Notes: generated by a model not told the origin, from the sequence alone. A stretch of DNA of 64,000 nt from Bacteroidales bacterium OttesenSCG-928-B11 (GCA_030267125.1 JAJDJJ010000003.1:309-64308); one strand, 5' to 3'; positions 4,568 through 35,994 are shown, counted from the first letter of the stretch. Program-made: numbers and translations.

Positions 4568-4780
4568 GGAGGAGTTGAGAGTAATCTTTATACTTTGATA
4601 AGTTAACGTTGTTATTGGCAGACGAACAGAAAAATATGATTGACAAATATTGAGGGAGAGATACAGCTTGTTGATATGATTTATCTGAAAAAAGGATTTA
4701 TATGCCTGATATATTCATATTTTTATTATCTTTGCAATTGTGTTTAAAAGCACAATAATCAATGTTTTTAATCTTCAATT

Positions 4781-5098
4781 ATGGATATAGACGCAATTAT
4801 AAATATCTCTCCGGATTCTATCCTAAAAGGAATTGCCCTAAGGGTTAAAGAGAAAAGACTTGAGCAAAATCTTACACAAAAGGCATTCGCCAAACGTGCA
4901 GGCGTTGGGTATGATGCATATCGTACATTTGAGAATACCGGAGATATTACGCTTCGCAATCTTGTTTTGTGTGCCATCGCTTTAGATGATGCGGATGGTT
5001 TTACGGAATTGTTTACAAAAAAATCATATCAAAGCATAGATGAACTATTGAAAGCTCAAGAAGTTAAAAAAAGAAAGAGAGGCTCGCGCAATGAATGA
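4781..5098 (+). CDS. XRE-family HTH antitoxin (HipB-like)
   Basis: HTH_3-like LTQKAFAKRAGVGYDAYRTFENTG; overlaps the start of the HipA-like gene by 8 bp. Confidence 0.8.
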   Translation: MDIDAIINISPDSILKGIALRVKEKRLEQNLTQKAFAKRAGVGYDAYRTFENTGDITLRNLVLCAIALDDADGFTELFTKKSYQSIDELLKAQEVKKRKRGSRNE

Positions 5099-6176
5099 AG
5101 TGAAAGTGATAGAAGTTTTTATGAACGCTGCAAAAGTTGGGCGGATTGCAATGACACCCGATTCTCTTTCTGCTTTTGAGTACGATTCCGACTATTTATT
5201 ATCCGGTAATTCTATTTCTCCATTTTATCTTCCGCTTAAAAAGGAACTGTTTATTGCCAAACGTACTCCCTTTAATGGAAATTTTGGTGTGTTCGATGAT
5301 AGCCTTCCTGATGGTTGGGGGAATTTGATTCTCGATAGGTACCTTCAAAGCAAAGGGATTAATCCGCATAAGCTAACTATTCTTCAACGATTGGCATTAA
5401 TTGGCAATACCGGACGCGGAGCCTTGGAGTATCGACCGGATTATAGTAAATCTACTGCCGATGAAATTATTAATTTCGATAAATTGGCTAATGAAGCGGA
5501 AAAGATTCTCACTTCCGATTACGAAGGAGATTCTTTGGATACTTTGTACAAGTATGGAGGGTCTTCGGGTGGAGCAAGACCGAAAGTGTTTGTCAAAATT
5601 GACGGCAAGGAATGGCTTGTCAAGTTTAAAGCGGCAATGGATCCGCCAAATATCGGAGAAATAGAGTATAAGTACTCATTGCTTGCCAAAAAATGCGGTA
5701 TCAAGATGCCTGAAACCAAACTTTTTGAAGGAAAATATTTTGGAGTGGAGCGGTTCGATAGAACACCTGATAGTAAAATCCATACGGTAAGCGCTGCCGG
5801 ACTTTTGAATGCGGATTACCGTGTGCCAAGTTTGGATTATGGAGATTTATTGCAATTGTGTCATATCCTTACTAAAAATATGGAAGAAGTGTATTCACTT
5901 TTCCGCCAGATGGTTTTTAATATCGCCATCAGAAACCGCGATGACCATGCAAAGAATTTTGCATTTCAGTTAATTAATGGAGAATGGAAACTTTCTCCTG
6001 CTTACGACCTTTTGCCGAGCAGCGGATTTAACGGCTTCCACACCACAACGATCAACAACTCCGGCGAACCGACAACTGATGACATAATGGCTGTTGCTAC
6101 TAAAGTCGGACTGAATAGGCAGCGAACGATGGAAATAACACAAGAGGTAGAGGAGCTTGTAAAAGAAGACAAATAG
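5091..6176 (+). CDS. hipA: HipA-family Ser/Thr kinase toxin
   Basis: DSLPDGWG, SSGGARPK (P-loop), RFDR, NRDDHAKNF catalytic loop and LSPAYDL motifs. Confidence 0.9.
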   Translation: MNEVKVIEVFMNAAKVGRIAMTPDSLSAFEYDSDYLLSGNSISPFYLPLKKELFIAKRTPFNGNFGVFDDSLPDGWGNLILDRYLQSKGINPHKLTILQRLALIGNTGRGALEYRPDYSKSTADEIINFDKLANEAEKILTSDYEGDSLDTLYKYGGSSGGARPKVFVKIDGKEWLVKFKAAMDPPNIGEIEYKYSLLAKKCGIKMPETKLFEGKYFGVERFDRTPDSKIHTVSAAGLLNADYRVPSLDYGDLLQLCHILTKNMEEVYSLFRQMVFNIAIRNRDDHAKNFAFQLINGEWKLSPAYDLLPSSGFNGFHTTTINNSGEPTTDDIMAVATKVGLNRQRTMEITQEVEELVKEDK

Positions 6177-6411
6177 TGAAATTCAGCGATTTTGTGAGGA
6201 ATCTGAATTGCTGAAATGGGTATCTTTGTAGATAGGAAATTTGAAGTAGTAAATGTGTCAATTGGACACAATATGACAGATAAATGATAAATTTTGCGAG
6301 TACTCTAATGGGGATTTGAAAGATGTGAAACTTGTAGAAAATGACCAGATTCCTCTTGGAAAATGTTGAAAACTTTTTTGTAGTAAGCAATAACAATTAA
6401 AGAAAAAATAT

Positions 6412-6433
6412 TACTTTTGACAAAAAATGTCAA
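6412..6433 (+). promoter_or_regulatory. Promoter -7 box overlapped by a TTGACA-N5-TGTCAA palindrome (candidate controller-protein operator)
   Basis: tacttttg at 6412-6419 overlaps ttgacaaaaaatgtcaa at 6417-6433, just upstream of the XRE gene. Confidence 0.55.
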
Positions 6434-6458
6434 GTCAAATTATTCAAAACGAAAAAAT

Positions 6459-6773
6459 GTGAGTATTAATCAAACTATAGGCGAAATTCTCAGAGAGAAC
6501 AGAGAAAAGAAAGGGCTACTTCTTAGGCAAGTTGCAGCTCTTCTTGATATTGATACCGCTATACTGAGTAAAATAGAACGCGGAGAGAGAAAAGCGAATA
6601 AAGGACTAATAATCAAACTTGCTGAAATTTTAGGTTTAAATAAAGAAGAATTATTAATCCATTATCTGAGCGAGAAAATTGCTTATGAATTGGTAGATGA
6701 GGATGTTGCTTCGCAAACTTTGAAAGTTGCAGAAAAAAGAGTAGAATACCTAAAAGCTCATAAGTCACAATGA
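6459..6773 (+). CDS. XRE-family HTH regulator, controller (C-protein)-like, heading the R-M operon (GTG start at 6459 preferred over the track's 6417)
   Basis: IGEILRENREKKGLLLRQVAALLDIDTAILSKIERGER HTH; ATGA overlap with the downstream R-M gene. Confidence 0.8.
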   Translation: MSINQTIGEILRENREKKGLLLRQVAALLDIDTAILSKIERGERKANKGLIIKLAEILGLNKEELLIHYLSEKIAYELVDEDVASQTLKVAEKRVEYLKAHKSQ

Positions 6774-13726: not shown

Positions 13727-14845
13727 ATGACAACCCATTTCGACGAATATATCCGCCAAGGCGAACCCTCGCAGAGGGAGAAAAGTCAAATTTGGCAAAT
13801 TGCGATTGGCCTACAGCAGGTTGATGGCTTAACGCCGTCTGCTTATCTCATTGAAACGGCGAAACAGAATATTGAAGGCGATATCACTATTGAAGAGGTA
13901 AAATATCGTATTGACAGCTATTATAAGCAACAGACAAATAGAAAAACTATCGATGACAATCGTACCGAAGAGGCTGATAAGGTTTCGGCAAACATTACCG
14001 AGATATTATCGGAAAAGACCTTTACGCTCAGCCTTACAGAACTTCTATCTATTCACAAACGTTTATTTGCCGGCGTTGAAAATATTCAGGTAAAAGTGGG
14101 CAAAATTCGTGATTACAATATCACTAAAAACGAATGGGTGCTGAACGGGAAAACCGTTTTTTATGCCTCTTATGATACGATAAATGCAACTCTCAATTAC
14201 GATTTTTCGCAAGAAAAAAAGTTTGATTATAAGGGACTTTCAAAAAGAGAAATAATAGAACATATTGCAAATTTTATTTCGGGATTATGGCAAATTCATG
14301 CTTTTGGAGAGGGGAACACACGTACAATAGCTGTTTTCAGCATTAAATACCTGCGCACATTTGGCTTTGAAATCGAAAACGATATGTTTGCAAGGCATTC
14401 GTGGTATTTTCGAAACGCTCTTGTTCGTGCAAACTACAATGACTACGAACATAATATTTATGCCACTTCAGAATATTTAATGCTATTCTTTGGCAATCTG
14501 TTGCTTGGAGAAAATAACGAATTAAAGAACAGATATTTGCGGATTGACTTAAACGCTAAAATTACAACTGAACCGAAGGAACAAAATCTCATAAATACAG
14601 GTGGTCAGAAAGAATTGTTGGGTGGTCAGAAAAAGTGGTCAGAAAAAGTGGTCAGATTACTTGAACTTATTGCTGAAAAACCAACCATTACCCGGAAAGA
14701 GCTTTCGGAAGCATTGCAAATCAACCCTTCTGCTGTGCAAAAACATATAGAAAAATTAAAAGAACAAAAAATTATTTCTCGTGTCGGATCGGATAAAAAA
14801 GGAAGTTGGGTAATCACATCAAAAGAAAATAGAGACAATGAATAG
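13727..14845 (+). CDS. Fic-domain protein with N-terminal VbhA-like inhibitory region and C-terminal HTH
   Basis: AIGLQQVDGL (inhibitory-helix-like), Fic motif HAFGEGNTRT, C-terminal winged HTH PTITRKELSEALQINPSAVQKHIEKLK...RVGSDKKGSW. Confidence 0.85.
   Translation: MTTHFDEYIRQGEPSQREKSQIWQIAIGLQQVDGLTPSAYLIETAKQNIEGDITIEEVKYRIDSYYKQQTNRKTIDDNRTEEADKVSANITEILSEKTFTLSLTELLSIHKRLFAGVENIQVKVGKIRDYNITKNEWVLNGKTVFYASYDTINATLNYDFSQEKKFDYKGLSKREIIEHIANFISGLWQIHAFGEGNTRTIAVFSIKYLRTFGFEIENDMFARHSWYFRNALVRANYNDYEHNIYATSEYLMLFFGNLLLGENNELKNRYLRIDLNAKITTEPKEQNLINTGGQKELLGGQKKWSEKVVRLLELIAEKPTITRKELSEALQINPSAVQKHIEKLKEQKIISRVGSDKKGSWVITSKENRDNE
14601..14656 (+). repeat. Tandem GTGGTCAGA(AAAA) repeats in the Fic-HTH linker
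   Basis: Copies start at 14601, 14622, 14635 and 14648 (periods 21, 13, 13 bp). Confidence 0.85.
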
Positions 14846-17741: not shown

Positions 17742-19055
17742 TTAACTCTCAACTCTTCTTTTAGAAAGAATCTCCGCCGTCACGCTTATTATCATTGTGA
17801 TAAGAAACAAAATACAACCGAGTAGAAATAAGGATTGATAATGTGCTCCGCCGGCAGGAGCTTCGCCCAATTCTGCGGCAATAGTCGCCGGAATAGTTCG
17901 CACGGGTTGGAAAAGCGAATGGGGAATGACAGCAGCGTTTCCCGTAACCATCAATACCGCCATTGTCTCGCCGATTGCTCGTCCGATTCCCAACACCACA
18001 GCTGTAGAAATTCCCGAAGCGGCGTATGGAATAACCACTTTATAGACCGTTTGCCATTTGGTGGCAGCGAGGGCTAAACTTGCTTCACGCATACTCCGCG
18101 GCGTATTTCGCATCGAATCTTCCGCAACGGTAATAATGGTCGGCAATGCCATAATCGCTAAAATCAGACTTCCGGCAAAGGCGGTTTCCCCAACAGGGAT
18201 ATCGAAAATCTTTTGGATCAGAGGAACAATAACGACCAATCCGAAAAATCCGTAAACTACCGAAGGAATCCCTGCCAAAAGTTCAATCGTAGGTTTCATG
18301 ATTTTCCGAATGCGTTCACTCGCCAATTCCGAAAGATAAATTGCGACACCCAAACCTAAAGGAAGTGCTATCAATATAGCGAAAATACTGACCAACAACG
18401 TTCCTGCGATAAGCGGCAATATGCCGAATTGAGCCGAAGGAGTTGAGGTGGGCAACCACTCTTTTCCTCCAAAGAAATCGGATATGCTAATATTTTCCGA
18501 AGGCAAAATCTTTACATTCGGATTTTCCGTTGGAAGATATTCTTCGGGGATATATGCAATAATTCCTTGATTTTGAGTAATAACTTCTCCTAATTTTTCA
18601 GGAAGTAATTCGTAATTTTCTCCGAATTCCTCTTCATCATAAAGTGAAAAGATATCTTCAAAATGAAACAGCTCTATTAGAAATGGAGAATTGAGAGTGG
18701 AGAATTGAGAATTATCTTCTTCATTCTCCATTCTCAATTCTCCATTCTCAACTTTCCATTGAGTGATTTCCCCGTCAAAAATTTCTTTGATTTGAAAGGA
18801 AGTTAACTGTTCAATATTATTAGAGGCATTGACACAAAGCGCATACCCTTTTTCAACAGCCGGACTTTTAAATAATCCAAATCCTTCTTTGAACAGAAAA
18901 ATGACAATTAATAAAATCGCAAGGCTTGTAATGCCGCCACTGAGAGTAAGTGCTATTCTGGCTAAACGCTCTGTTAATTGAGAATGGAAAATTGAGAATG
19001 GAGAATGCTTGTTGCTCTTCTTTTTGTGATTATAATTTTTCGAACTTAATTTCAT
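17742..19055 (-). CDS. pstC: Phosphate ABC transporter permease PstC with periplasmic insert
   Basis: ELLAGIPSVVYGFFG, EAA-loop REASLALAATKWQT, GRAIGETMAV, TIAAELGEA. Confidence 0.95.
   Translation of the reverse strand: MKLSSKNYNHKKKSNKHSPFSIFHSQLTERLARIALTLSGGITSLAILLIVIFLFKEGFGLFKSPAVEKGYALCVNASNNIEQLTSFQIKEIFDGEITQWKVENGELRMENEEDNSQFSTLNSPFLIELFHFEDIFSLYDEEEFGENYELLPEKLGEVITQNQGIIAYIPEEYLPTENPNVKILPSENISISDFFGGKEWLPTSTPSAQFGILPLIAGTLLVSIFAILIALPLGLGVAIYLSELASERIRKIMKPTIELLAGIPSVVYGFFGLVVIVPLIQKIFDIPVGETAFAGSLILAIMALPTIITVAEDSMRNTPRSMREASLALAATKWQTVYKVVIPYAASGISTAVVLGIGRAIGETMAVLMVTGNAAVIPHSLFQPVRTIPATIAAELGEAPAGGAHYQSLFLLGCILFLITMIISVTAEILSKRRVES
18682..18760. repeat. Inverted heptamer (AATTGAG/AATGGAG) repeat palindrome inside the pstC coding sequence
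   Basis: aatggag-aattgag-agtggag-aattgag ... attctcc-attctca-attctcc-attctca; encodes WKVENGELRMENEEDNSQFSTLNSPF. Confidence 0.85.
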
Positions 19056-23712: not shown

Positions 23713-24870
23713 ATGTTATTTAGAGATGTGATGGTTGACGAAAACATCAAAAAGCAATTAATCAACCAAGTAAAGAGCAATAGAATCAGTCATGCACAAC
23801 TTTTCCTCTCACAACCGGGGGGAGAAGGTTTTGCGCTGGCAGTGGCATACGCGCAATACCTGTCTTGCAGCGACAAGCAAGAGCACGACTCCTGCGGCGT
23901 TTGTCCATCCTGCCAAAAGTATATCAAATTAGCCCACCCCGACTTGCATCTCTATTTTCCAAATGCCATCACGAAGGATGTAAAAAAAGATCCTGATTCC
24001 AGGCAATTTACGAAAGAGTTCATCCAGTTCGTGCAAAACAACAATTACCATATCAACCTGGATGATTGGTTATCGCATTTGGATGCGGAGAATAAACAGG
24101 CATCGATCAACATCCGCGATTGTGTCAACATCATCGAAGAGAACGGAAATCGATCATACGAAGGTGGATATAAGGTGTTCATCCTTTGGATGGTGGAACG
24201 ACTTTTCCACTCCGCCGCTCCTAAATTGCTAAAAACGCTGGAGGAACCAGAGAGGAACACGCTTTTTGTCCTCATTTCCGAAAATCCGGACAAGATCCTA
24301 ACGACTATACAGTCCCGCGCACAACTCATCAAACTACCCAAACTCTCGGAAGAGATGATTGCGCAACAGTTAATGCAAGAGTATTCCATCAGTCATGAAG
24401 TGGCACGCGATATTGCCGTGCTCAGCGACGGGAATTATCATTTAGCCCTATCGCTTTTCCAAGATCAAGGTGAAATGGGCAAACTGCAGGATTACTGCGC
24501 AAAATTGCTGGACAGTCTCAACTCCTTTGTCACTACCGCTAACAAAACGCATATCGATTTCATCGGCGTCAATAATGTCTTCCAAGAAATTGTCGGTGGC
24601 GGTCGTGAAAACCAGAAACAGTTCATCGGATATCTCCTATCGCTTTTCCGCAAGATGTTACTCCACAACACCCACAACAACCCCGTCTTGAAGCTGACCG
24701 AAAAAGAGAAAGCGCTGCTTGCCAGTTACGCCAATCTCATCACGCTACGCAACATCACTCCGATCGTCAAAGAGTGTAACGAGGCGATCTATCACATCGA
24801 GCGCAATGGCAATTCGAACATTATCTTCAATGATTTGTATTTGAAGTTAGCTGAAATTATGAAATCTTAA
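23713..24870 (+). CDS. holB: DNA polymerase III delta-prime subunit
   Basis: SHAQLF, DSCGVCPSC Zn cluster, HPDLH, KLLKTLEEP, TIQSR. Confidence 0.9.
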   Translation: MLFRDVMVDENIKKQLINQVKSNRISHAQLFLSQPGGEGFALAVAYAQYLSCSDKQEHDSCGVCPSCQKYIKLAHPDLHLYFPNAITKDVKKDPDSRQFTKEFIQFVQNNNYHINLDDWLSHLDAENKQASINIRDCVNIIEENGNRSYEGGYKVFILWMVERLFHSAAPKLLKTLEEPERNTLFVLISENPDKILTTIQSRAQLIKLPKLSEEMIAQQLMQEYSISHEVARDIAVLSDGNYHLALSLFQDQGEMGKLQDYCAKLLDSLNSFVTTANKTHIDFIGVNNVFQEIVGGGRENQKQFIGYLLSLFRKMLLHNTHNNPVLKLTEKEKALLASYANLITLRNITPIVKECNEAIYHIERNGNSNIIFNDLYLKLAEIMKS

Positions 24871-24882
24871 AAACTTATAATT

Positions 24883-25449
24883 ATGAAAAGAAAAACACTT
24901 TTATCTATTTTAATTGCTTTTATCGTACTTACGACTTTTTCCTCCTGCAAGGAGGAAGTGCCCCCCATGCTTGGGTATTGGAAGTGCACGGGTATCGGCG
25001 CTAATGTATTGGGAACAAGCACATCAACCATTGGCGAAGACATGCTAAAATACTTCAGTATCAGTTATGCCGGCGTGGGCACTTCAGGCGTTTACGCCCG
25101 TGTTGGCGCTGACGATCTGAACGCTGTTGCTTCGCTGGCAACCTCAACAGGCATTTCCGCTTGGAAAGAGTTCTTGACCACCGGCAAATACACTTATGAT
25201 GCCACAGCCGGAACCATTACCCACACCTCGAAAGGTGAAAGTAAAACTTACAAATACTCCATTTCCAACAACGGCAAGACGTTAAAATTGGTTGAAGCAA
25301 ATGATAACGTCGGCTCCTCTTCCGCCTTAAATAGCGCGTTAGACATTCTGAACAACTTGCTTGGCACCGATGCCAACACTACTGTAGGGGTGGAATATAC
25401 GTATGAAAAACTGAGCGGTGAAGATGCCTTCAACGCATTGAAACTATAG
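24883..25449 (+). CDS. Hypothetical lipoprotein (lipocalin-like)
   Basis: Lipobox FSSC followed by LGYWK, as in Bacteroidetes lipocalin-like proteins. Confidence 0.6.
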   Translation: MKRKTLLSILIAFIVLTTFSSCKEEVPPMLGYWKCTGIGANVLGTSTSTIGEDMLKYFSISYAGVGTSGVYARVGADDLNAVASLATSTGISAWKEFLTTGKYTYDATAGTITHTSKGESKTYKYSISNNGKTLKLVEANDNVGSSSALNSALDILNNLLGTDANTTVGVEYTYEKLSGEDAFNALKL

Positions 25450-25469
25450 GGCATTTCGTTTCGCAACTA

Positions 25470-26642
25470 CTAACCCTTTATCACCGCTATCGGGCTCAGC
25501 TCGGTTCTTATCTTCACTAAATCCTGTTGCAATTCCATCACTTTGGAGATCTCTTTGTATGCCGATGCCGCCTCCTCCAAATCTGATTTTCCACGGATGG
25601 AGTGGATGATGCCCCGCTCGTCAAGTTTGCGTTTCTCCTCCTCCAAATCTAACTCCCTGACAGCTTTCGCGCGGCTCATCGTCCGGCCGGCGCCATGCGA
25701 GCACGACATAAAGCTCTCGGGATTCCCCAGTCCTTCCACGATGTAGGATTTCGTTCCTTGTGATCCGGGAATAATGCCGATCTCCCCTGTAAAAGCAGAA
25801 GTTGCCCCTTTGCGATGCACAATAACCTTCTCTCCAAAATGCTCCTCCCACGCCGCATAGTTGTGCGCGATATTAATCATCGGTTCATACTCCACGCCCA
25901 ATATTTCATGACCCACAACTTCCTGGATACGCTCCATCATCAACTGGCGGTTAGAAAAAGCGAACGAAACACAGTACAGCATCTCTTGATAATACTGCTT
26001 TGCCGCCTCCGTATTAAAGGGCAGAAAGGCCAGATCCCATTTCGGATCGACGGCGGAATACCAAGAGGCATTCAGATTTTTGGCAACGTTATTATAGTGC
26101 TCCGCCACTTTCAATCCGATATTGCGACTTCCGGAGTGGATCATAATCCAAAGCATACCCGTTTCATCTTTCTGAAGTTCTATAAAATGATTCCCGCCTC
26201 CAAGCGTGCCGATCTGCTTCAAAGCAGAGTTGTATTGATTTCTCACTATAAAAAGTTTATCAATATCGAAATCTTGCGGCATCCTGCTTTCATTCTGCTT
26301 TTCTTTATGATGATTGAATCCCAGCGGAACGCGATCTCTCACGCCTTTCATGATCTTCTTTATGATTTCGGGAGAAAGAGTTTTCACTGAAACATTGGTC
26401 TTCACTGCGCACATTCCACAGCCAATATCCACACCCACGGCATTGGGTATAATTACGCCCTGGGTTGCCAAAACGCCACCGATAGGCATGCCGTAACCCT
26501 GATGTGTATCGGGCATCAGGCAAACATGCTTAAACGCAAAGGGCAGATTTGCCAAGTTCTTAGCTTGTTTGATAGAGCCCTCTTCGGCATCGTCCAACCA
26601 CATCTTAATGGGGATTCGTTCAGTTGATATTACTTGTTGCAT
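25470..26642 (-). CDS. rtcB: RtcB RNA ligase
   Basis: MPDTHQGYG, VGVDIGCG, GTLGGGNHFIE, HSGSR, HNY, HRKGA, SCSHGAGR, AYK. Confidence 0.95.
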   Translation of the reverse strand: MQQVISTERIPIKMWLDDAEEGSIKQAKNLANLPFAFKHVCLMPDTHQGYGMPIGGVLATQGVIIPNAVGVDIGCGMCAVKTNVSVKTLSPEIIKKIMKGVRDRVPLGFNHHKEKQNESRMPQDFDIDKLFIVRNQYNSALKQIGTLGGGNHFIELQKDETGMLWIMIHSGSRNIGLKVAEHYNNVAKNLNASWYSAVDPKWDLAFLPFNTEAAKQYYQEMLYCVSFAFSNRQLMMERIQEVVGHEILGVEYEPMINIAHNYAAWEEHFGEKVIVHRKGATSAFTGEIGIIPGSQGTKSYIVEGLGNPESFMSCSHGAGRTMSRAKAVRELDLEEEKRKLDERGIIHSIRGKSDLEEAASAYKEISKVMELQQDLVKIRTELSPIAVIKG

Positions 26643-26758
26643 GATGATATATTATACGGCAAATCCTATTTTTCTTTGCTCTTGATTTTTGTACAGAAAC
26701 TCACAATAAAATGCTATTGTTTCACATCGTCTGGCAGATTTTCCCCACATTATTATAT

Positions 26759-26845
26759 TTATTTTTCTAACAACCAATCTATTACATTTATCTTTTGTAT
26801 TCCTTTATAACTTGTTTCAGGTTCAACATCGGTAGTGAGTAGAAT
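26759..26845 (-). pseudogene. C-terminal remnant of an AAA/DUF4143-type ATPase gene
   Basis: Minus strand reads ILLTTDVEPETSYKGIQKINVIDWLLEK*, similar to the end of 48630..49856 (FLLTTESFPQSRDGIIHRNVFEWLLEK*). Confidence 0.6.
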
Positions 26846-27076
26846 TCGACGATTAAAATACAAATGTCATCCAAAACCTGTGATTCCGTACAAGTTTTGG
26901 CTAAAAATATTTTTGACTTTCGACCTTTTAATTTCAAGCTGGATTGTCCACAAACTTGCCACAACGGTTTCATACATGCAAAAATACACACTTTCTACGT
27001 CAATGAGAATACAGATAGTCAGTATTTCCCAAAAAAACATTTTTATTTCAGGATGAGAATATTTCTTTGCAAGTAG

Positions 27077-27110
27077 TGCTGTGGTTTGGCATATCCTTAT
27101 TTTAGTTTTG
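27077..27110 (+). promoter_or_regulatory. Putative WYL operator plus -7 promoter of the TM2 gene
   Basis: TGCT-gtggttt-GGCA, 11 bp, TAGTTTTG. Confidence 0.65.
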
Positions 27111-27164
27111 CCGCTGAAAAGACACATAAGCAAAACAAGGAGATGTTGCGCCTTTTTATTTCTG

Positions 27165-27210
27165 AGCAACCGGAAGTGCCGAAAGCCGTAAATGTAGGCA
27201 GTGGAAAATC
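27165..27210 (+). ncRNA. Candidate structured cis-regulatory leader RNA (possibly DUF805-like motif)
   Basis: ccggaag-UGCC-GAAAG...UGUA-GGCA-gugg stem with GAA/GUA internal-loop signature in a ~105-nt 5' UTR. The family resemblance is from memory and unverified. Confidence 0.35.
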
Positions 27211-27217
27211 AATAATT

Positions 27218-27562
27218 ATGGAAAAAGGTAAAGTTGAAATGTTTATGATCTCTAATGGCAATAAATTTCCGACAGAAAATTTAAAGTCGATTAAAGAATC
27301 TTTAGAAAAAATGAGTGATGATAACGGCGTATTCTTGCACTCCCTATCTTTAAGCTCTCCCACAACCGCATTGGTGTTAGGGATTTTATTTGGAGCTGAC
27401 AGGATCTATCTTGGACAGATCGGACTTGGGTTATTCAAAATTGCAACCATGTTTTTCTTGGTGGGTTTACTGTGGTGGTTTATTGACTTGTTCTCCATTT
27501 TAAGGCGGGCAAAAGAACATAATTTTGAGAAATTTAGTAAAATCACCGCTTATAGTCGTTAG
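27218..27562 (+). CDS. TM2-domain membrane protein (ATG at 27218)
   Basis: PTTALVLGILFGADRIYLGQIGLGLFK...WWFIDLF TM2 signature. Confidence 0.85.
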   Translation: MEKGKVEMFMISNGNKFPTENLKSIKESLEKMSDDNGVFLHSLSLSSPTTALVLGILFGADRIYLGQIGLGLFKIATMFFLVGLLWWFIDLFSILRRAKEHNFEKFSKITAYSR

Positions 27563-27733
27563 CTGTTTTTTGACAGATAGCATAGTAAAAGGCCTGTAAA
27601 TATTTTTTTGTGAACTATTTTAACTAATCAAATCTAATATTATATTTGCATGGAAAATTTAGGAAGAAATATCGCAAAAGATATTGCATGACTAAACGAT
27701 TGCAACGATTTACTCACACTAAAAAATAACAAT

Positions 27734-28687
27734 ATGAAAAAAATAGAGAATCTATCAAGCATAATAGGGAAAATTCCAAAAGAGGGAGATATAAAAATAA
27801 ATCCATTAGACACTTCTTATGGGAAACATGAAAATACGCATTCTGACCTGATTGTCAAGTTCTTAAAAGCTGACATAGCATTGGCGCAATCATTTTTTAA
27901 AATAGTGCTAAAGCAGGAATGGCCTAATGCAGAATTAAAAGTATCAAGAGAAAAAGGACGAATTGATATTTTAATTGAGTATGGGAAGAACGAATCTATT
28001 ATCATAGAAAATAAGATTAATGCATCTGATCAACCAAAACAGTTGCAAAATTATCATGAATACACTTTAAATCATAAAGGTACAAAACCACGTATTTTCT
28101 ACCTAACTCCTTATGGCACTAATCCAAGTGAAGATTCAAAAGGCGATTTGGAGGTGAAATGCATCAGCTATGAAAATGATATCCTTTCGTGGTTAGAAGA
28201 ATTCAAGACAGAGGATCAGGCTCTAAAACATGCTATCCAATTTTATATAGAATTAATTCGTAAAACAATAAACAGAAATAAATATATGACAGACATTTTA
28301 AAGAAAATTTTCACCGGAGAAAATAACCATGCGAAAGAAGCTATTAATTTGTACTTAGCCATGAATGGCAAGAATTTCTTAGATATTCCGGAAATAAAAG
28401 AGAAATTTGAAAACCTGATATATATCTGCGTTTCAAACAATCATGAACCAGAAGACTGGGCAGATACGAAAGATAACTGCAGAGAATTAAGTGATCTTGA
28501 TAATAACATTGATTTTTATATTACAGGGTCATCGATATATGCAGAAAAAAACAATAGTGTGCGTTTGGGAGAAGAGATCCGATGCAATGATCTTGGCGAT
28601 GAAAATCTCTGCTATTTATTAGCAGGTGAGACAGAAGATATCCAGAGATGGGTTGATCATATTTACAAAGAAGCAGAGGCAGAATAG
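27734..28687 (+). CDS. PD-(D/E)XK nuclease family protein (PDDEXK_4-like)
   Basis: HENTHSD, RE..RIDILI...IIIENKINASDQPKQLQNY, FYLTPYG, ISYENDI. Confidence 0.85.
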   Translation: MKKIENLSSIIGKIPKEGDIKINPLDTSYGKHENTHSDLIVKFLKADIALAQSFFKIVLKQEWPNAELKVSREKGRIDILIEYGKNESIIIENKINASDQPKQLQNYHEYTLNHKGTKPRIFYLTPYGTNPSEDSKGDLEVKCISYENDILSWLEEFKTEDQALKHAIQFYIELIRKTINRNKYMTDILKKIFTGENNHAKEAINLYLAMNGKNFLDIPEIKEKFENLIYICVSNNHEPEDWADTKDNCRELSDLDNNIDFYITGSSIYAEKNNSVRLGEEIRCNDLGDENLCYLLAGETEDIQRWVDHIYKEAEAE

Positions 28688-28711
28688 ATCTTTTTTCAGA
28701 TAAGAAAAATG

Positions 28712-28745
28712 AAAAAGGGTTGCGAGTTACACTTGCGACCCTTTT
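28712..28745 (+). terminator. Intrinsic terminator after the PD-(D/E)XK gene
   Basis: aaaagggttgcgagt-tac-acttgcgaccctttt hairpin followed by a T-rich tail. Confidence 0.8.
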
Positions 28746-28764
28746 GCTTTTTAAAGCTGACCTA

Positions 28765-28798
28765 TGCCCTATTTTGGCAGAGATGATCTCTATTTTTG
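28765..28798 (+). promoter_or_regulatory. Putative WYL operator plus -7 promoter of the orphan 264-aa gene
   Basis: TGCC-ctatttt-GGCA, 11 bp, TATTTTTG. Confidence 0.75.
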
Positions 28799-28831
28799 CA
28801 CCAATAAATGTAATTTAAAAAAACTCAAAAA

Positions 28832-29626
28832 ATGCCCTCTTCTTTTAAAAAAGCACAACAATTGTTAGAAAGAATAATGCCGGATAGATCGTGGCGTTAT
28901 CACAATCCTGAACTTTCAGAATTTTCGAAAAGGATAGATAAATGTTCCATTTCAGAATTGGAAAATTTAGCCATACAAATTAGCGAATATAAATCAGACA
29001 GATATTACAAGGGGCTATTGTCTGACCTCGTTTTGAGAAGAAGACGCTGGTTGTTAAACAGAGAGTTTGAAGGCAATGAAATCAATACGAAACACTTCAT
29101 GAGGGTTCTTTCTCTTTTTAAAAAACGGGAAAACCTGCTGCGGAAAAAAGCCGATGAGTTATATGCCGAACTCTGGAAAAAATGGGGAAACGGGAAAAAT
29201 GAAAATTTCAGCGACTTCTATATTGAGATTTCATTATCACCACATTACAACTGGGAAAGATCTATTCTCAATTTAAAAAATGATGAAACGACGTACAATT
29301 ATGGGAAGATAGCCGAAATATTAGATGATGTTAATTCCACGGAATCAATATTCTCAAACCGCATTGATTTTGACAGGCAAAAGTTTCATGAAAATCCATT
29401 TACCGATTCTGAAAGAAAATCTATACAGTGCCTTTTATTTTTTGAAGAACCAAGACTTGAAGAACAGCTGTATGCATTTAGAGATGTTCCCGTCACTTGG
29501 GGTTTTCATTGTTTAGTAGATCATACGCATTACGCTGTGCAAGATATTATTCGCATAAATGATATTTGGGGCGAAGTAAGGGTTGGATACCAGGATATAT
29601 TTGACCAAAAAGGGAGGCATTTTTGA
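28832..29626 (+). CDS. Hypothetical protein, no recognised family
   Basis: 264-aa ORF with its own -7 promoter and A-rich translation start; no motif recognised. Confidence 0.7.
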   Translation: MPSSFKKAQQLLERIMPDRSWRYHNPELSEFSKRIDKCSISELENLAIQISEYKSDRYYKGLLSDLVLRRRRWLLNREFEGNEINTKHFMRVLSLFKKRENLLRKKADELYAELWKKWGNGKNENFSDFYIEISLSPHYNWERSILNLKNDETTYNYGKIAEILDDVNSTESIFSNRIDFDRQKFHENPFTDSERKSIQCLLFFEEPRLEEQLYAFRDVPVTWGFHCLVDHTHYAVQDIIRINDIWGEVRVGYQDIFDQKGRHF

Positions 29627-29676
29627 CTATTTCAAATCTTTGCAAAGGTTTTTCCTCATGTAATCAACAAACCCCA

Positions 29677-29710
29677 TGCCGCATTTTGGCATAACTATTC
29701 CGTATATTTG
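29677..29710 (+). promoter_or_regulatory. Putative autoregulatory WYL operator plus -7 promoter
   Basis: TGCC-gcatttt-GGCA, 11 bp, TATATTTG, 22 bp before the WYL ATG. Confidence 0.75.
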
Positions 29711-29732
29711 CGCAATCATTTAAAAAAATAGT

Positions 29733-30638
29733 ATGGCTAAAGATCTTTTTAATCGCTACATCTGGTTGGTGGACACGATTTACCGAGCTAAGAGAATTAC
29801 TTTCGAGGAGATTAATGAGCGTTGGCTCCGCAATGAAATGAGTGAGGGGATTGATCTTCCCTTGCGCACTTTTCACAATCATCGAAAAGCAATTGAGGAG
29901 ATATTCGATATTCTGATAGAGTGTGATAAGCAGGATTCTTATCGCTATTATATTGAAAATGCAGATGATATGGAGAAAGGCAATGTTCGGAATTGGCTGC
30001 TCAATACGTTTGCGGTCAATAATCTCATCAATGAAAGTCACAAATTGAAATCGCGCATTTTATTCGAGGAGATTCCTTCCGGACGAGAGTATCTCACGCC
30101 CATTATCGAAGCGATGCGAGACAACCTGACTCTTGAAATCTCTTACAAAAGCTATTGGAGAGAGGAGGCTTATACTTTTAATATTGAACCGTATTGCGTG
30201 AAAATTTTCAAACAACGGTGGTATTTGCTGGGAAAATCAACCTCCCATGACGAATTGCGGACTTATGGTTTAGACCGGATTCAACATTTGCAGATTTTAG
30301 ATATTCCTTTTAAATATCCCAAAGATTTCAACCCTAAAGATTATTATCACCATGCTTTCGGAATCATTACCGATCAGAATATTCAACCTGCTTTTATTAC
30401 CGTCAAAGTAAATAAGGGGCAGGTTAACTATCTCAAAGGTTTGCCGTTGCATCATTCTCAAGAGGAGATTGAAGTAGCGGAGGATCATTCGTTATTCCGG
30501 TACTATGTTGCACCGACTTTTGATTTCCTGCAAGCGATTTTAGCTTATGGTGAAAATATGGAAGTCATTTCACCCGCTTTTTTCAGAAGCGAGGCAAGAG
30601 AAATCGCAAAACAGCAGTATCAACACTACAAGAAATAG
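29733..30638 (+). CDS. WYL-domain transcriptional regulator (wHTH-WYL-WCX)
   Basis: RYIWLVDTI wHTH, EPYCVKIFKQRWYLLG, YGLDRI, PLHHSQ, EVISPAFFR. Confidence 0.92.
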   Translation: MAKDLFNRYIWLVDTIYRAKRITFEEINERWLRNEMSEGIDLPLRTFHNHRKAIEEIFDILIECDKQDSYRYYIENADDMEKGNVRNWLLNTFAVNNLINESHKLKSRILFEEIPSGREYLTPIIEAMRDNLTLEISYKSYWREEAYTFNIEPYCVKIFKQRWYLLGKSTSHDELRTYGLDRIQHLQILDIPFKYPKDFNPKDYYHHAFGIITDQNIQPAFITVKVNKGQVNYLKGLPLHHSQEEIEVAEDHSLFRYYVAPTFDFLQAILAYGENMEVISPAFFRSEAREIAKQQYQHYKK

Positions 30639-30651
30639 CACGGTATCAGCA

Positions 30652-31467
30652 CTATAAAAACAGCTCCGGCTCACTTCTTCCCGTGTAGCGCTGTTCCAGC
30701 TCAAGTTTGTGGTAAAGAAAGTTCGGGTCGTCGAAATATTTTGCTCCGACCGGACACTTTTTAATACAGGCGCAACACTTCATGCATGGATCGGTAATTT
30801 TTTCTACATGATCATGGTTTATAGCTCCGAGCGGACATGATTCGGCACAGATTTTACAGTCGAGACAAAGTGAGCGATCGGTATGGGGTTTAACTTTTCG
30901 AATGTCGATAGGATTTCCCGCGCGATCTCGGGGTTGGTAATAAGGGCGCAGGGGAAGTTGACCGTTTATGCTTACCGGTTCTGTCAAGTCAGCGCCGGAG
31001 ATTATCTTCCCCGCAACCTGATCTGCAAAATCACGGGCAATTGCCATATCTTTCTCGTCGGGTCGTCCTTGGGCCAAAATATTAGAGAAAGAGTGTTCAC
31101 CAACAAACGCTGCCGCTGCGATTGTCCGGAATCCGTTACGCGACATTATCTCTCGCAGTTCCATAAGAGCATCGTCGTAAGCGCGGTTGCCGAACAGGAC
31201 TACCGGTATGGCCAATGCCCCGTTGCCTTGGATAGTGTCGAGGTAATTCAACAGCAGGTTCGGCAACCTGCCGGCTATTACCGGCATCCCGAAGACTGCA
31301 ATATGGTTTGTGGTAAACGTTTTCAGACTTTCCCGAGCCGCTTTGGGCGTAAAATTAAATGTATCGACAGGGATGCGCAATGTTTCACCAATCCGATGCG
31401 CGATAGCCGTGACCACCTTCTCCGTGGTTCCGGTCGGACTGAAATAGATGGCGCAAACATGGCTCAT
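30652..31467 (-). CDS. EFR1-family flavodoxin-fold/4Fe-4S ferredoxin
   Basis: IYFSPTGTT flavodoxin loop, GNRAYDDAL, CLDCKICAESCP and CMKCCACIKKCP. Confidence 0.88.
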   Translation of the reverse strand: MSHVCAIYFSPTGTTEKVVTAIAHRIGETLRIPVDTFNFTPKAARESLKTFTTNHIAVFGMPVIAGRLPNLLLNYLDTIQGNGALAIPVVLFGNRAYDDALMELREIMSRNGFRTIAAAAFVGEHSFSNILAQGRPDEKDMAIARDFADQVAGKIISGADLTEPVSINGQLPLRPYYQPRDRAGNPIDIRKVKPHTDRSLCLDCKICAESCPLGAINHDHVEKITDPCMKCCACIKKCPVGAKYFDDPNFLYHKLELEQRYTGRSEPELFL

Positions 31468-31480
31468 TCCCCTACCCCTT

Positions 31481-31855
31481 TTAATTGTGATTGCATTCGT
31501 GACTGTCACCGTGCGCGCGACATAGTTCGCCGGAATCTTTTATTTGCCCTACGACATACAAGGTTAATAATACGTCTATATCGCCTGTGCAGCCTCTATA
31601 AACTGTTATGCCATGATGGGTAAGCACGTTGAAAGCTCCGTCGCCCATATTTCCGGCAAGCATAACGCTTACCCCTTTTTGTTGTAGCACCGAAGCAATA
31701 TTGCTTTTGCATCCGCAACCCTGTGGCGACGGCAAAGATTCTTTGTTTATGATATTGCCTGATGCATCAATGGTGTAAATCGTATAACTCTCGCAATGTC
31801 CGAAATGGCTGTCAACCATGTTGCCCTTTGTGGGGATCGCAATTTTCTTTTCCAT
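31481..31855 (-). CDS. NifB/NifX-family (dinitrogenase FeMo-cofactor-like) protein
   Basis: KIAIPT...VDSHFGHC, GNMGDGA. Confidence 0.85.
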   Translation of the reverse strand: MEKKIAIPTKGNMVDSHFGHCESYTIYTIDASGNIINKESLPSPQGCGCKSNIASVLQQKGVSVMLAGNMGDGAFNVLTHHGITVYRGCTGDIDVLLTLYVVGQIKDSGELCRAHGDSHECNHN

Positions 31856-32214
31856 TTTTCTTCTTTAATGATTTGATAATGACACAAATGATATCCAACG
31901 AAAAACGTTCTTGTAGTTTCTTTTTCCGTTGGTTTATCTTCATATAGATTTGGCGTGCAAAATTACATACAATAATTTAGAATAGGAGCCAAATTCATGC
32001 CCGATTTCTCTCCGATCAGTTTCGTTGGCACTAATTTATCCTTTAATCATGTAGTTACTATCTTTTGTTACTACTTGCTCTTCTATGCTGTGGAATAATA
32101 TTTGCAGTCACCGCCATCAATACGTTGATTATTTCATGGGTAAAAAAGGGCGATCATCTTCCATGCAAATTTCAAATGTTATTTGTATTTTTGCATGGAC
32201 AAATAGTGCGTGAT

Positions 32215-33375
32215 ATGTATATACATCGATATCTTGAACCGAGCGTTTTGAAAACGTTGCAAAATTTTCCGGTCACGGCGGTGACAGGTCCTCGTCAATG
32301 TGGAAAGTCAACATTAGTGAAGCATCTTCTGGAAGCGTATCCGGAAAATGTTTATTTAGATTTGGAACGGCCGTCAGATTTGCGGAAATTAGAAGATGCG
32401 GAATGGTTTTTGACATCACAAAAAGGAAAGCTGATTTGCATTGATGAGATTCAACGTCAACCGGAACTGTTCCCGTTAATCAGAAGTTTGGTTGATGAAT
32501 GGAACCGACCGGGATGCTTTTTGATTTTGGGTTCCGCTTCGCGGGATTTGCTCAAACAGAGTTCCGAATCTTTGGCCGGAAGAATTTCCTATAAAAGGTT
32601 AACGCCGTTTCTTTGGGAAGAGTTGGAGAGCGATTATCCTATCGAAAAATATTTTTCCGCAGGTGCATTCCCCCGTAGTTTATTGGCTGCGGATAACGAA
32701 GTCTCTTTTGAATGGCGCGAAAATTTTATTCCCACATTTTTGGAAAGGGACTTGTTGCAATGGGCAGGTTTCACGCCGATTACCATGCGACGTTTATGGC
32801 AAATGCTGGCTCATGTTAACGGGCAAACGGTCAATTATTCCACATTGGCTAAATCATTGGGTATTACTTCCACTACGGTGAAAAGTTATATCGACTTATT
32901 AGCAGGAACTTACATGATTGAAATTGTGCCACCGTATCTTTCCAATTTGGGTAAAAGATTGGTGAAATCGCCTAAAGTATATATTTCCGATTCGGGAATT
33001 ACGGCGGCCTTGCTGGGCTTGCGAAGTTTTGAAGAGTTGTCGGGACATCCGGCATTTGGAGCAATATGGGAGCAAATCGTGTTGTCAAACCTGAAAGGAA
33101 TATTCCCCGATGCCGAGTTTTTCTATTACCGGACAACGAACGGTGCGGAGATCGATTTTGTTATGAAAATCCACAACACCATCTTTGCTATTGAGTGCAA
33201 AGCGTCCTACTCTCCCACATTATCCAAAGGGAATTATCTCGCCATCGAGGACATCGCTCCCAAACATACGTTCATCGTAACTCCCTCTCTTAGAAGCTGG
33301 TCAATGAAAGAAGGAATTGACGTGGTGTCGTTGCGGGGTGATGAGAATGTGGGATGGGATATGATAAGGCTATAA
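32215..33375 (+). CDS. AAA+ ATPase with DUF4143 C-terminal domain
   Basis: Walker A GPRQCGKS, Walker B IDEIQ, ESLAGR, KSPKVY.SDSG, EIDFV...IECK. Confidence 0.88.
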   Translation: MYIHRYLEPSVLKTLQNFPVTAVTGPRQCGKSTLVKHLLEAYPENVYLDLERPSDLRKLEDAEWFLTSQKGKLICIDEIQRQPELFPLIRSLVDEWNRPGCFLILGSASRDLLKQSSESLAGRISYKRLTPFLWEELESDYPIEKYFSAGAFPRSLLAADNEVSFEWRENFIPTFLERDLLQWAGFTPITMRRLWQMLAHVNGQTVNYSTLAKSLGITSTTVKSYIDLLAGTYMIEIVPPYLSNLGKRLVKSPKVYISDSGITAALLGLRSFEELSGHPAFGAIWEQIVLSNLKGIFPDAEFFYYRTTNGAEIDFVMKIHNTIFAIECKASYSPTLSKGNYLAIEDIAPKHTFIVTPSLRSWSMKEGIDVVSLRGDENVGWDMIRL

Positions 33376-33495
33376 ATTCAGAACTCCTGACTTCTACCAA
33401 TTTTTGAAAAACGCAAATGTGCGACATTTTTATTTAGAATAATCCCACGCTAAGAAGCTGATTTTCAAGGTGGAGGTCAGGAGTTCTGAATCTAT
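33372..33495. mobile_element. Small MITE-like element with 27-bp terminal inverted repeats
   Basis: ataaattcagaactcctgacttctacc (33372-33398) vs ggtggaggtcaggagttctgaatctat (33469-33495), 3 mismatches; non-coding interior. Confidence 0.5.
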
Positions 33496-33561
33496 GGCAT
33501 TTTTTGCAACCCTGCCGTGTCTTAGAGATTGGCAGGGTGGGCAGGAAATCGCTTTAAGCTA

Positions 33562-35994
33562 TCAGATGAATAGATTCACATTCGCATTGTCCGCCCGCTC
33601 CATGTAGGAGGCCACGCCACCAATGGTGATGCCATCCAACATCTCTTCCTTTTTCACACCCATGACATCCATCGACATTTGGCAAGCGATAAACTCAACT
33701 CCTTGTTCAATAGCTTGTTCGCGTAAAGATTCTAACGAGTCAACACCCTTCTGTTTCATGATATGACGCATCATCCGACTGCCGATGCCAAACATGTTCA
33801 TCTTCGACAGCTTTAGTTTCAACGAACTTGACGGCAACATCATGCCAAACATTTTGCCGAATATGTCTTTCTGAACTTTGGGCTTTCTGACTTTTTTGAT
33901 CACGTTAAGTCCCCAGAAAGTGAAGAAAATAGATACTTTTTCTCCTGTTGCGGCAGCTCCGTTGGCAAGCACGAAAGTGGCTAAGGCTTTATCCAGGTCA
34001 TCGCTGAACATGATGAAGGTCTTTCCATGACCACCTGATGGGTTTGCTGCCTGTTCCTTTTTGGGAGCGCCTTTTTCAATAACGACCGTATATTTCCCTT
34101 TCTCGTTTGTGTTTGAAATCATTTTATTTCCTGTCGTATTGCACCAAGCTTGCGCATCGCGAGAAAATCCGGCATCGGTGGCCACAATTTCCAACTGTTC
34201 GCCTTGGCCAATGCTGTCGATAGATTGTTTGAGCCGCAAAATGGGACCGGGGCACTGCAACCCGCAGGCATCCACTTTGAGCGTCTTTGTCGCTGTATTT
34301 TTGTTTTGTTCTATCATCGGATCGTTGTTTATTGGATTATTGTAAATAGGTGCGGTTGCCGCCCAGTAGGTTTTGTATCCGCCTAATACGTTTTTCACAT
34401 TGGGATAACCGGACGCCAGCAATATCTTGGTTGCCAGATAGCCCCGTAGTCCTATCGCGCAATAGATGTAAATGCTCTTCTCTTTCGGAATTTCATCCAT
34501 TCTTTTGCGTAGTTCATCTAATGGTATGTTTATCGCGTTGGAAGTATGCTCCGTCGAAAATTCATCTTTGGTGCGCACATCCAGCACTACTATTTCATCC
34601 GGATCTGCATTGTTCAATTCGCGCCATGTGGCGTAGGGCATTGCTCCGCTAAGGATATTGGCGGCCACATAGCCGGCGATGGCAATCGGATCTTTTGCCG
34701 ATGAAAACGGGGGAGCGTAGGTATGTTCCACTTTCATCAAATCGTAAATCGTTCCGCCGTTTTTGATCAACAGCGCTATTTGATCGATGCGTTTATCCAC
34801 ACCGTCATAGCCCACACATTGAGCACCGTAGAGTTTGCCATTGACGGGATCGAAAACAAGTTTCAGACTCAAAGGCAGGGCGTCCGGGTAATAGCCGGCA
34901 TGCGAATTGGAGTGCGTCCATGAGTTGAGATGCGGAATGCCCATCTGTTTCAAACGCTTGGCGGCAAGACCGGTAGAGGCTACGGTTAGATCGAAAACTT
35001 TGGCTATGCTGGTGCCGATAGCGCCTTCGTACTTCTCCTTGTTGCCGAATGTGATATTGTTGGCGGCAATCCATCCTTGGCGGTTTGCCGGATTGGCGAG
35101 ATAATTCAACCACGGTTTACCTGTTAATGGGTGTGGAAACTCAATCGCGTCGCCAACCGCATAGATATCTTTTTCGGATGTCTCTAAATATTCGTCCACC
35201 CAGATACCGCCGGTTTCGCCAATCTTCAATCCCGCTTTCTGCGCCAGCTCAACTTCGGGACGTACTCCGATAGAGAGGATGACCATATCGGCGCTGAGTG
35301 CCTTTCCACATTGAAGCTGAACGCTGATTTGTTCGCCGTTTTTAGAAAATCGCTCAACCGCTTGTTCCAAATAAAGTGAAACCCCTTTTTGCAAAATATG
35401 TTGATGAACGTGCGCCGCCATTGAATAATCGATAGGCGCCATGACATGACTGCCCATTTCGACAATCGAAACATGAGCGCCCGTGTGATGCAGGTTTTCT
35501 GCCATTTCCAATCCGATGAATCCGGCTCCGATCACCACGGCATTTTTAATTTCCTTGCTATCTATATAGTTTTTTATTCTGTCGGTGTCGTTTACATTGC
35601 GAAGCACGAAAATCCCGTCAAGCTCAACTCCTTCCATGCTTGGGCGAACCGGTTTCGCTCCGGGCGAAAGCAATAGTTTGTCGTATGACTCAGAATATTC
35701 CGTTCCGTCTGATTTGCGGATTTTCACAATTTTGGTTTGCGGGTTTATCTCCATCGCTTCATTTTCAACCCGAACATCAACATTAAACCTCGATCCAAAC
35801 GATTGTGGGGTTTGCAAGAATAACTTCTCGCGCTCCTCGATCACTCCGCCTATGTAGTAGGGCAATCCGCAATTAGCATACGAAATATATTCTCCTTTTT
35901 CTAACAGGATAATTTCTGCAGACTCATCGTTTCTCCGTATCCGGGCAGCGGCGGTTGCTCCACCGGCAACTCCCCCTATAATTATGTATTTCAT
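33562..35994 (-). CDS. CoA-disulfide reductase / rhodanese / TusA / DsrE-like multidomain fusion
   Basis: GGVAGGA, SYANCGLPY, rhodanese YCAIGLRG, TusA DACGLQCPGP, DsrE-like FFTFWGL and ACQMSMDVMG. Confidence 0.92.
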   Translation of the reverse strand: MKYIIIGGVAGGATAAARIRRNDESAEIILLEKGEYISYANCGLPYYIGGVIEEREKLFLQTPQSFGSRFNVDVRVENEAMEINPQTKIVKIRKSDGTEYSESYDKLLLSPGAKPVRPSMEGVELDGIFVLRNVNDTDRIKNYIDSKEIKNAVVIGAGFIGLEMAENLHHTGAHVSIVEMGSHVMAPIDYSMAAHVHQHILQKGVSLYLEQAVERFSKNGEQISVQLQCGKALSADMVILSIGVRPEVELAQKAGLKIGETGGIWVDEYLETSEKDIYAVGDAIEFPHPLTGKPWLNYLANPANRQGWIAANNITFGNKEKYEGAIGTSIAKVFDLTVASTGLAAKRLKQMGIPHLNSWTHSNSHAGYYPDALPLSLKLVFDPVNGKLYGAQCVGYDGVDKRIDQIALLIKNGGTIYDLMKVEHTYAPPFSSAKDPIAIAGYVAANILSGAMPYATWRELNNADPDEIVVLDVRTKDEFSTEHTSNAINIPLDELRKRMDEIPKEKSIYIYCAIGLRGYLATKILLASGYPNVKNVLGGYKTYWAATAPIYNNPINNDPMIEQNKNTATKTLKVDACGLQCPGPILRLKQSIDSIGQGEQLEIVATDAGFSRDAQAWCNTTGNKMISNTNEKGKYTVVIEKGAPKKEQAANPSGGHGKTFIMFSDDLDKALATFVLANGAAATGEKVSIFFTFWGLNVIKKVRKPKVQKDIFGKMFGMMLPSSSLKLKLSKMNMFGIGSRMMRHIMKQKGVDSLESLREQAIEQGVEFIACQMSMDVMGVKKEEMLDGITIGGVASYMERADNANVNLFI

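Follow-up and report, generated by a model that had tools for sequence, protein, structure and literature searches.

A dyad element at fixed distance from the -7 box of three promoters points to a local WYL regulon in a Bacteroidales genome island

We analyzed a 64,000-nucleotide (nt) stretch of Bacteroidales bacterium OttesenSCG-928-B11 (GCA_030267125.1 JAJDJJ010000003.1:309-64308), hereafter the window, in which a 4-kb island of low guanine-plus-cytosine (GC) content carries three promoters built to one plan: a 15-base-pair (bp) dyad, TGCY-N7-GGCA, ends exactly 11 bp upstream of the -7 box. The three promoters precede genes for a TM2-domain membrane protein, a 264-amino-acid (264-aa) protein and a WYL-WCX regulator, and the element is very probably the binding site of the adjacent WYL protein. 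The resulting WYL-regulon reading is supported by comparative genomics, and, as judged from sequence, the finding is a Bacteroidales variant of the promoter-embedded WYL site of the DriD and PafBC kind. Our favored reading of its action, to which we assign an even chance, is that of a ligand-gated WYL activator that would replace the -33 contact at all three promoters.

Three promoters and one element

The sites, their -7 boxes and the genes that they precede are as follows (window positions; ORF, open reading frame).

27077..27091, + strand: site 1, TGCT-N7-GGCA, an imperfect palindrome, TGCTGTGGTTTGGCA, upstream of the TM2 gene
27103..27110, + strand: -7 box TAGTTTTG of the TM2 promoter, 11 nt 3' of site 1 (whole element 27077-27110)
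27218..27562, + strand: gene for the TM2-domain membrane protein, 114 aa (Pfam TM2, E 4.5e-09; ORF 27086..27562, likely ATG at 27218)
28765..28779, + strand: site 2, TGCC-N7-GGCA, TGCCCTATTTTGGCA, upstream of the 264-aa gene
28791..28798, + strand: -7 box TATTTTTG of the 264-aa gene promoter, 11 nt 3' of site 2 (whole element 28765-28798)
28832..29626, + strand: gene for the 264-aa protein, of a small uncharacterized family
29677..29691, + strand: site 3, TGCC-N7-GGCA, TGCCGCATTTTGGCA, upstream of the WYL gene
29703..29710, + strand: -7 box TATATTTG of the WYL promoter, 11 nt 3' of site 3 (whole element 29677-29710)
29733..30638, + strand: gene for the WYL-WCX regulator, 301 aa (Pfam WYL and WCX; N-terminal domain presumed to be a winged helix-turn-helix, wHTH)

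In each element the half-sites occupy positions 1-4 and 12-15 around a T-rich center, and all three boxes fit TAnnTTTG, the consensus -7 box of the Bacteroides primary sigma factor (PMC7366714). Positions and N11 spacing agree with those given in an earlier note on this DNA, and each site stands upstream of the gene named there. The regulator itself carries a WYL domain at residues 119-188 (PF13280, E 5.8e-16; 58.7 bits, cut-off 21.8) and a WCX extension at residues 222-294 (PF25583, E 2.3e-07; 31.5 bits, cut-off 23.9), and its gene is the single WYL-domain gene of the assembly (2,617,199 bases in 168 contigs, 75.7% complete).

A chance likeness of three AT-rich promoters is exceedingly improbable. 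Short T-rich motifs are common in such a region, but the 34-nt pattern, with up to two mismatches allowed, is matched in the window by the three named elements and nothing else, against 0.04 matches expected, and none of 100 shuffles reached three. Furthermore, the whole 2.62-Mb assembly, in which TAnnTTTG boxes number 2849 and the bare palindrome has 155 strand-matches, contains three exact matches to TGCY-N7-GGCA-N11-TAnnTTTG, all of them in the island and together in 2.6 kb, and the design is conserved in other genomes. A relaxed scan of the assembly (one half-site mismatch, N10-12) added one site, at C1:26640 and with N12 spacing; unrelated promoters of this genome do not carry the motif. 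Nor are the three promoters simple duplications, because their likeness does not reach beyond the motif (the two best are 72% identical over 39 nt).

The near-match at C1:26640 (+) reads TGCC-N7-GGAA and is followed, after 12 nt, by TATATTTG. Bare TGCY-N7-GGCA palindromes are also present at 14481-14495 and 18052-18066 of the window, in the coding regions of a Fic/HTH (helix-turn-helix) gene and an ABC permease gene, respectively; with no -7 box behind them, these two are probably chance occurrences.

Homologous loci and predicted outputs

WYL homologues (E up to 1e-20) were found in 96 of 150 other sampled genomes of the family, all at most 49% identical to the island protein, and in just one of six genomes of its own genus. 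Among the best 30 family loci, the window's own counted in (homologues 35-49% identical), 24 carry a same-register dyad that precedes a -7 box immediately 5' of the WYL gene; the dyad's sequence is mostly TGTGCC-N7-TTCACA and sometimes ATGCC-N7-GGCAT, and one locus (L003) has it at N12. A wider sample of 80 loci from named genomes (identity to the query up to 61%), with members from Odoribacter, Alistipes, Bacteroides, Phocaeicola, Parabacteroides, Prevotella, Muribaculaceae, Paludibacteraceae and others, repeats the same design in many cases, with the dyad often extended to ~23 bp. A palindrome in this register accordingly stands upstream of many WYL homologues across the Bacteroidales. In a test blind to half-site sequence (109 loci), at least four of six arm positions in the register are complementary at 40 of the 73 boxes lying up to 120 nt upstream of WYL genes, compared with 78 of 751 other boxes.

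The spacing is constrained to the base pair. When the distance to the next TAnnTTTG box is taken for all 387 strand-sites of [ACG]TGC-N9-GC[AG][CT] in 604,595 bases of 111 loci, 59 of them stand at 11 nt and six at 12 nt, with zero cases at 1-10 or 13-16 nt; eight cases at 0 nt represent the dyad's own flank reading as a box, and 14 at 42-45 nt an additional site farther upstream in divergent regions. A direct count yields 67 sites at N11 or N12, with at least one such site in 55 of the 111 loci, distributed as follows.

N11 sites: 25 before WYL genes, 31 before other genes, 5 with no ORF called
N12 sites: 4 before WYL genes, 2 before other genes, 0 with no ORF called

The other genes headed by these sites include the following.

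TM2 (L112)
AAA ATPases of ~560 aa (L014-type loci, L052, L060, L113)
HAD_SAK_2 (L072, L075)
Metallophos (L038), FGE-sulfatase (L005), DUF6140, and several without a family

Since the headed genes belong to unrelated families, one inherited promoter cannot explain the base-exact spacing.

In the divergent regions between WYL and AAA ATPase genes of six loci (L016, L017, L018, L021, L024 and L027), the two promoter-embedded sites flank a third dyad, GTGCATAAAAT[TC]GGCA, whose distance to each of the -7 boxes is 42-44 nt. As to HAD_SAK_2, a Bacteroidota cluster in the Atlas consists of WYL-HAD_SAK_2 fusion proteins, related WYL loci head genes for HAD_SAK_2 'RNA repair' phosphatases, and a gene for the RNA ligase RtcB borders the island.

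These comparisons bear on the outputs that the earlier note had proposed for the regulator. The closest WYL homologue found (60% identity) lies in locus L112, where TGCT-N7-GGCA at N11 heads a TM2-first operon of six genes (575-3891: TM2, a SpoU-type methylase, three uncharacterized genes and WYL last), next to which a region at 4428-6729 encodes an EcoRI-like methylase and a GmrSD/HNH nuclease. The TM2 proteins of the island and of L112 are weakly alike (33% identity over 64 residues), and the near-identical site heading a TM2 gene beside the closest WYL homologue upholds the TM2 gene as an output.

Between the TM2 and 264-aa genes, the island contains two further features.

27734..28687, + strand: PD-(D/E)XK nuclease-like protein (Pfam PDDEXK_4, E 7.8e-20; PADLOC candidate PDC-S26, E 2e-40)
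28713..28745, + strand: intrinsic-terminator-like hairpin, 15-pair stem and T run, from a terminator scan, 3' of the nuclease gene

The nuclease had been described as inserted between the outputs, and it does lie between them without a palindrome site of its own; the word may nevertheless miss a functional link. Because the terminator scan gave no terminator-like site between the TM2 and nuclease genes (27562-27734) and its sole strong one directly 3' of the nuclease gene, the nuclease may be a fourth output, co-transcribed from the TM2 promoter. Alternatively, a TATATTTG at ~27642 could act as the nuclease's own promoter.

Homologues of the 264-aa protein are rare: two of the 150 other family genomes have one, a word-indexed search of 5.8 billion proteins returned four matches, and a full HMMER pass over 1.84 billion representatives returned 64, of which 22 have E values up to 1e-10. 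Some of them lie near WYL genes and sites. In locus L033 a homologue stands behind a 300-aa WYL-WCX gene, and both promoters carry CGAC-N7-G(A/G)CG, at N10 and N11; in L032 the 264-aa domain is fused to BspA-type leucine-rich repeats behind a CGAC-N7-GACG-N11-box element; and across the distant WYL and 264-aa-homologue loci L033, L032, L120, L123 and L126 the site takes the form CGAC/CGTC-N7-GnCG/GTCG/GACG at N10-11. Among the 19 metagenome loci of 264-aa homologues, found with a five-sequence alignment, four (L118, L119, L130 and L133) have an adjacent WYL gene, L130 not being independent of L033 because their WYL genes are 100% identical. Four of the 19 (L120, L123, L126 and L130) have a 4-N7-4-N11-box site before the homologue, and in L133 that site is degenerate; most of the other metagenome contigs are short, or have the homologue inside an operon. 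That homologues in other organisms neighbor WYL genes and have sites that co-vary supports the proposal of the 264-aa protein as an output.

It is improbable that the element serves some factor other than the WYL protein, whether as the upstream element of an alternative sigma factor or as the site of a different DNA-binding protein, or that it is a regulator-less cassette spread by recombination. The proximal half is asymmetric, with TTTGGCA conserved and the distal inner positions not, and could be a promoter element rather than one half of a dimer site; the regulator's N-terminal domain, moreover, matches no Pfam HTH family. However, the sites co-occur with WYL genes in the 55 of 111 loci counted above and are enriched upstream of them, the half-sites change with the WYL subfamily at constant spacing, dyad symmetry reaches 23 bp in many loci, and the -7 box is of the primary sigma type. 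Within the island, ORF calls and Pfam reveal no second regulator gene to which the site could belong.

Activation or repression

If the WYL protein does bind the element, activation is somewhat more probable than repression. Over the WYL-WCX region, a 21-member profile of the family matches PafBC at E 1.6e-16 and DriD at E 4.9e-16 to 2.5e-15, a likeness of shared domains rather than orthology, while CapW (E 0.012-0.71) and BrxR (E 0.051-0.45) match marginally and over the WYL core alone. The activator is favored because the profile is closer to DriD and PafBC and because the layout and fixed position match those of activator promoters; by analogy with those systems, the layout fits the activator pattern on every testable point.

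DriD of Caulobacter crescentus, a homodimeric wHTH-WYL-WCX activator triggered by single-stranded DNA (ssDNA), shares the WYL and WCX domains of the island regulator. Its sites have specific positions 1-4 and 12-15 around an AT-rich center (PMC10853764); they occur at promoters without a -35 element, where they overlap its position and keep a constant distance from the -10 (PMC13004042). The island element resembles them in its 15-bp length, in the same specific positions and AT-rich center, and in lying over the -35 position at constant distance from the downstream box. Indeed, CGTC-N7-GACG of locus L123 is the very core spelled by the numbered positions of the DriD paper (C1, G2, T3, C4 / G12-G15). 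The island differs in phylum, in primary sigma factor and promoter type (-7 TAnnTTTG) and in its TGCC/GGCA half-sites; it is a local three-promoter regulon rather than a genome-wide damage response, and the N-terminal domain of its regulator lacks a sequence match.

The mycobacterial PafBC, which acts by sigma adaptation, is the best profile match, and its promoters combine a canonical -10 with a regulator-specific -26 element and no -35 (PMC8635444), a hybrid design with an upstream element in fixed place. PafBC differs, however, in being a heterodimer or fused double protein (664 aa) that controls ~150 genes through an element that is not a palindrome. The general statement that WYL regulators bind palindromic operators does not hold for PafBC. 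SiwR of Mycobacterium smegmatis, an activator whose palindrome lies between -35 and -10 (PMC10693628), is likewise a homodimer with an imperfect palindrome at neighboring genes and a local regulon; unlike the island system, it is actinobacterial, with a 19-bp palindrome and DinB-like target genes. CapW and BrxR, repressors of CBASS, BREX and other defense systems, share the domain order, palindromic sites and adjacency to defense-type genes. Their sequence similarity is marginal, and the CapW site overlaps the -10 (PMC9122588), whereas the island site stops 11 bp before the -7 box.

Under the activator reading, a dimer of the WYL-WCX protein would occupy the 15-bp site in place of the -33 promoter element, and the 11-bp distance between half-site centers is as expected if both subunits bind the same face of the helix. 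If the -7 box is taken to span about -11 to -4, the site would span about -37 to -23. The promoters would thus be hybrids, with the -7 box read by the primary sigma factor. With a ligand derived from nucleic acid (by analogy, ssDNA) in its WYL/WCX pocket, the protein would provide the upstream contact and recruit RNA polymerase, as DriD and PafBC do. Its predicted outputs would be the TM2 protein, probably with the PD-(D/E)XK nuclease, the 264-aa protein, and the regulator itself in a positive feedback.

All three sites end 11 bp upstream of the -7 box, and the distal half-site occupies the place of a -33 TTTG. The site's own TTTG stands 14 nt ahead of the -7 box, closer than the ~19-21 nt expected of a -33 element. 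In 507 crude promoters of this genome, TTTG around -33 shows no clear peak at any offset, and the -33 element is generally weak in Bacteroidota (PMC7366714). A missing -33 for these two reasons cannot separate an activator from a repressor.

That last point is one of several that weigh against the activator reading. DriD is not autoregulated, whereas the promoter of the island's WYL gene carries a site of its own, and a site covering -33 would suit equally well a repressor that blocks sigma region 4. No Pfam HTH family is matched, at E up to 10, by residues 1-110 of four family members; Atlas look-alikes of residues 1-105, which we regard as leads only, include a cluster auto-named 'helix-turn-helix transcriptional regulator' and another with HTH_11 in 19% of its members. 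Six of the 30 family loci (L002, L004, L009, L012, L013 and L022) have no such site upstream, and many of the 80 wider loci have no box there. Many loci, moreover, are close relatives of one another, so that locus counts overstate independence and the variety of cargo families is the stronger point. Finally, RNA contigs are fragmentary (two metatranscriptome runs at shares of 0.09-0.10, beside one DNA run at 0.27); contigs from these three runs span parts of the nuclease gene, the 3' end of the WYL gene and the TM2 promoter of a relative, and we draw no conclusion from them.

The chief rival, to which we give a lower yet substantial probability, is that the WYL protein represses in the manner of BrxR and CapW and is released by a ligand. 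Bound at the -33 region, it would bar RNA polymerase from all three promoters, with negative feedback at its own, until ssDNA derived from damage or phage released it; CapW is reported to sense ssDNA (PMC11662680). All evidence that assigns the site to the WYL protein applies equally to such a repressor. The setting also speaks for it: WYL repressors typically stand beside defense systems (PMC9122601, PMC9122588, PMC11662680), and the low-GC island resembles the surroundings of BrxR and CapW, with the defense candidate PDC-S26 inside it and PDC-S01 adjoining, while L112 lies next to its EcoRI-like methylase and GmrSD-like nuclease. Arrays of three sites in a row, common for repressors, occur in some related divergent regions, and perfect-consensus -7 boxes are expected of promoters that are strong once freed. 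On the other hand, DriD and PafBC match the profile better than CapW and BrxR by many orders of magnitude. CapW sites overlap the -10, but the island-type site always leaves the -7 box free, and it keeps a base-exact distance from that box at unrelated genes, which simple occlusion would not need.

We also consider a broader scheme, doubtful as a joint reading, in which the element is part of a 'plug-in' promoter system widespread in Bacteroidales. Here, a DriD-like WYL family would replace the -33 contact, and any gene behind the 15-bp site, N11 spacer and -7 box would become inducible by a nucleic-acid damage signal. The cargo would be freely swapped among TM2 proteins, ~560-aa AAA ATPases, HAD_SAK_2 RNA-repair phosphatases, nucleases and orphans, and the 264-aa protein would be a novel effector associated with nucleic acids. 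The TM2 protein could, by analogy with the small membrane protein DidA, be a damage-induced membrane effector, for example a brake on division or growth. The didA gene is a DriD target, and its product a cell-division inhibitor that binds the divisome component FtsN (PMC10853764).

In Alphaproteobacteria and Actinobacteria, WYL regulators are well known, and so are their dyad sites and fixed-position design. A full-text literature search, with subscription journals outside its coverage, returned no description of such sites in Bacteroides or Bacteroidota. One preprint mentions a Bacteroides uniformis WYL gene whose downstream gene seems harmful under a transposon promoter (10.1101/2025.10.10.681549); we claim no kinship between it and the island family. 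The control of stress and anti-phage genes is poorly charted in Bacteroidales, dominant bacteria of gut and rumen whose promoters differ from the textbook type. If true, the present reading would make a regulon legible from sequence in hundreds of species through a short site at fixed distance from the -7 box, would point to uncharacterized effector genes, including the 264-aa family and TM2 proteins, and would extend the DriD/PafBC mode of activation to a different sigma factor. The promoter-plus-regulator cassettes could in turn serve as compact inducible switches for Bacteroides engineering.

The 264-aa protein, the island and its borders

The 264-aa protein has zero matches in Pfam, NCBIfam or PADLOC. 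Fusions of its domain (P0009, P0030, P0069, P0006 and P0007) involve a DnaB-type helicase C-terminal domain, radical SAM, a WYL fragment and BspA-type leucine-rich repeats. A first structural model, built from five sequences, was poor (predicted local distance difference test, pLDDT, 62), and a second from 35 sequences was confident (pLDDT 85.9; predicted template modeling score, pTM, 0.86). With Foldseek, no PDB structure matched the models at E up to 0.001, and the best VIA-align hit (Z 7.4) covers the N-terminal helices alone, within the tool's stated noise range for helical models. Despite the confident model, the predicted structure is thus without a recognizable fold. A HindIII-like fold was considered and rejected, as its probability fell from 0.82 with the poor model to 0.20 with the good one.

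The island has a GC content of 0.30-0.39, compared with 0.42-0.50 in its flanks, and is bordered by the following genes.

25470..26642, - strand: RtcB RNA ligase gene, one border of the island, of core-genome GC content
30652..31855, - strand: Fe-S / FeMo-cofactor-type genes, the other border

RtcB was considered as a fourth target and rejected: by reading of the sequence and by the palindrome list, its upstream region (26643-26800, minus strand) contains neither site nor box. At the other border, synteny comparison gave a distant match to the flanking Fe-S gene in just one of six congeners, and an empty site could not be demonstrated. Just past the island lies a DUF4143/AAA_14 ATPase gene (32065-33375, +; PADLOC candidate PDC-S01, E 1.2e-85) without a WYL-type site upstream. 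The TM2 protein, like the 264-aa protein, has no PADLOC match, and Rfam matched zero families over 24000-34000. A scan for sigma-70-type promoters, uninformative for this phylum, returned 18 sites against 16.4 expected.

An alternative in-frame ATG at 27143 would lengthen the TM2 protein by 25 residues. With the start at 27218, the TM2 gene would have a leader of ~100 nt (27111-27217), with no Rfam match there. Upstream of the TM2 promoter, a 430-nt AT-rich gap contains a Cys/His-rich ORF of 70 aa (26864-27076, +), which stops one base 5' of site 1.

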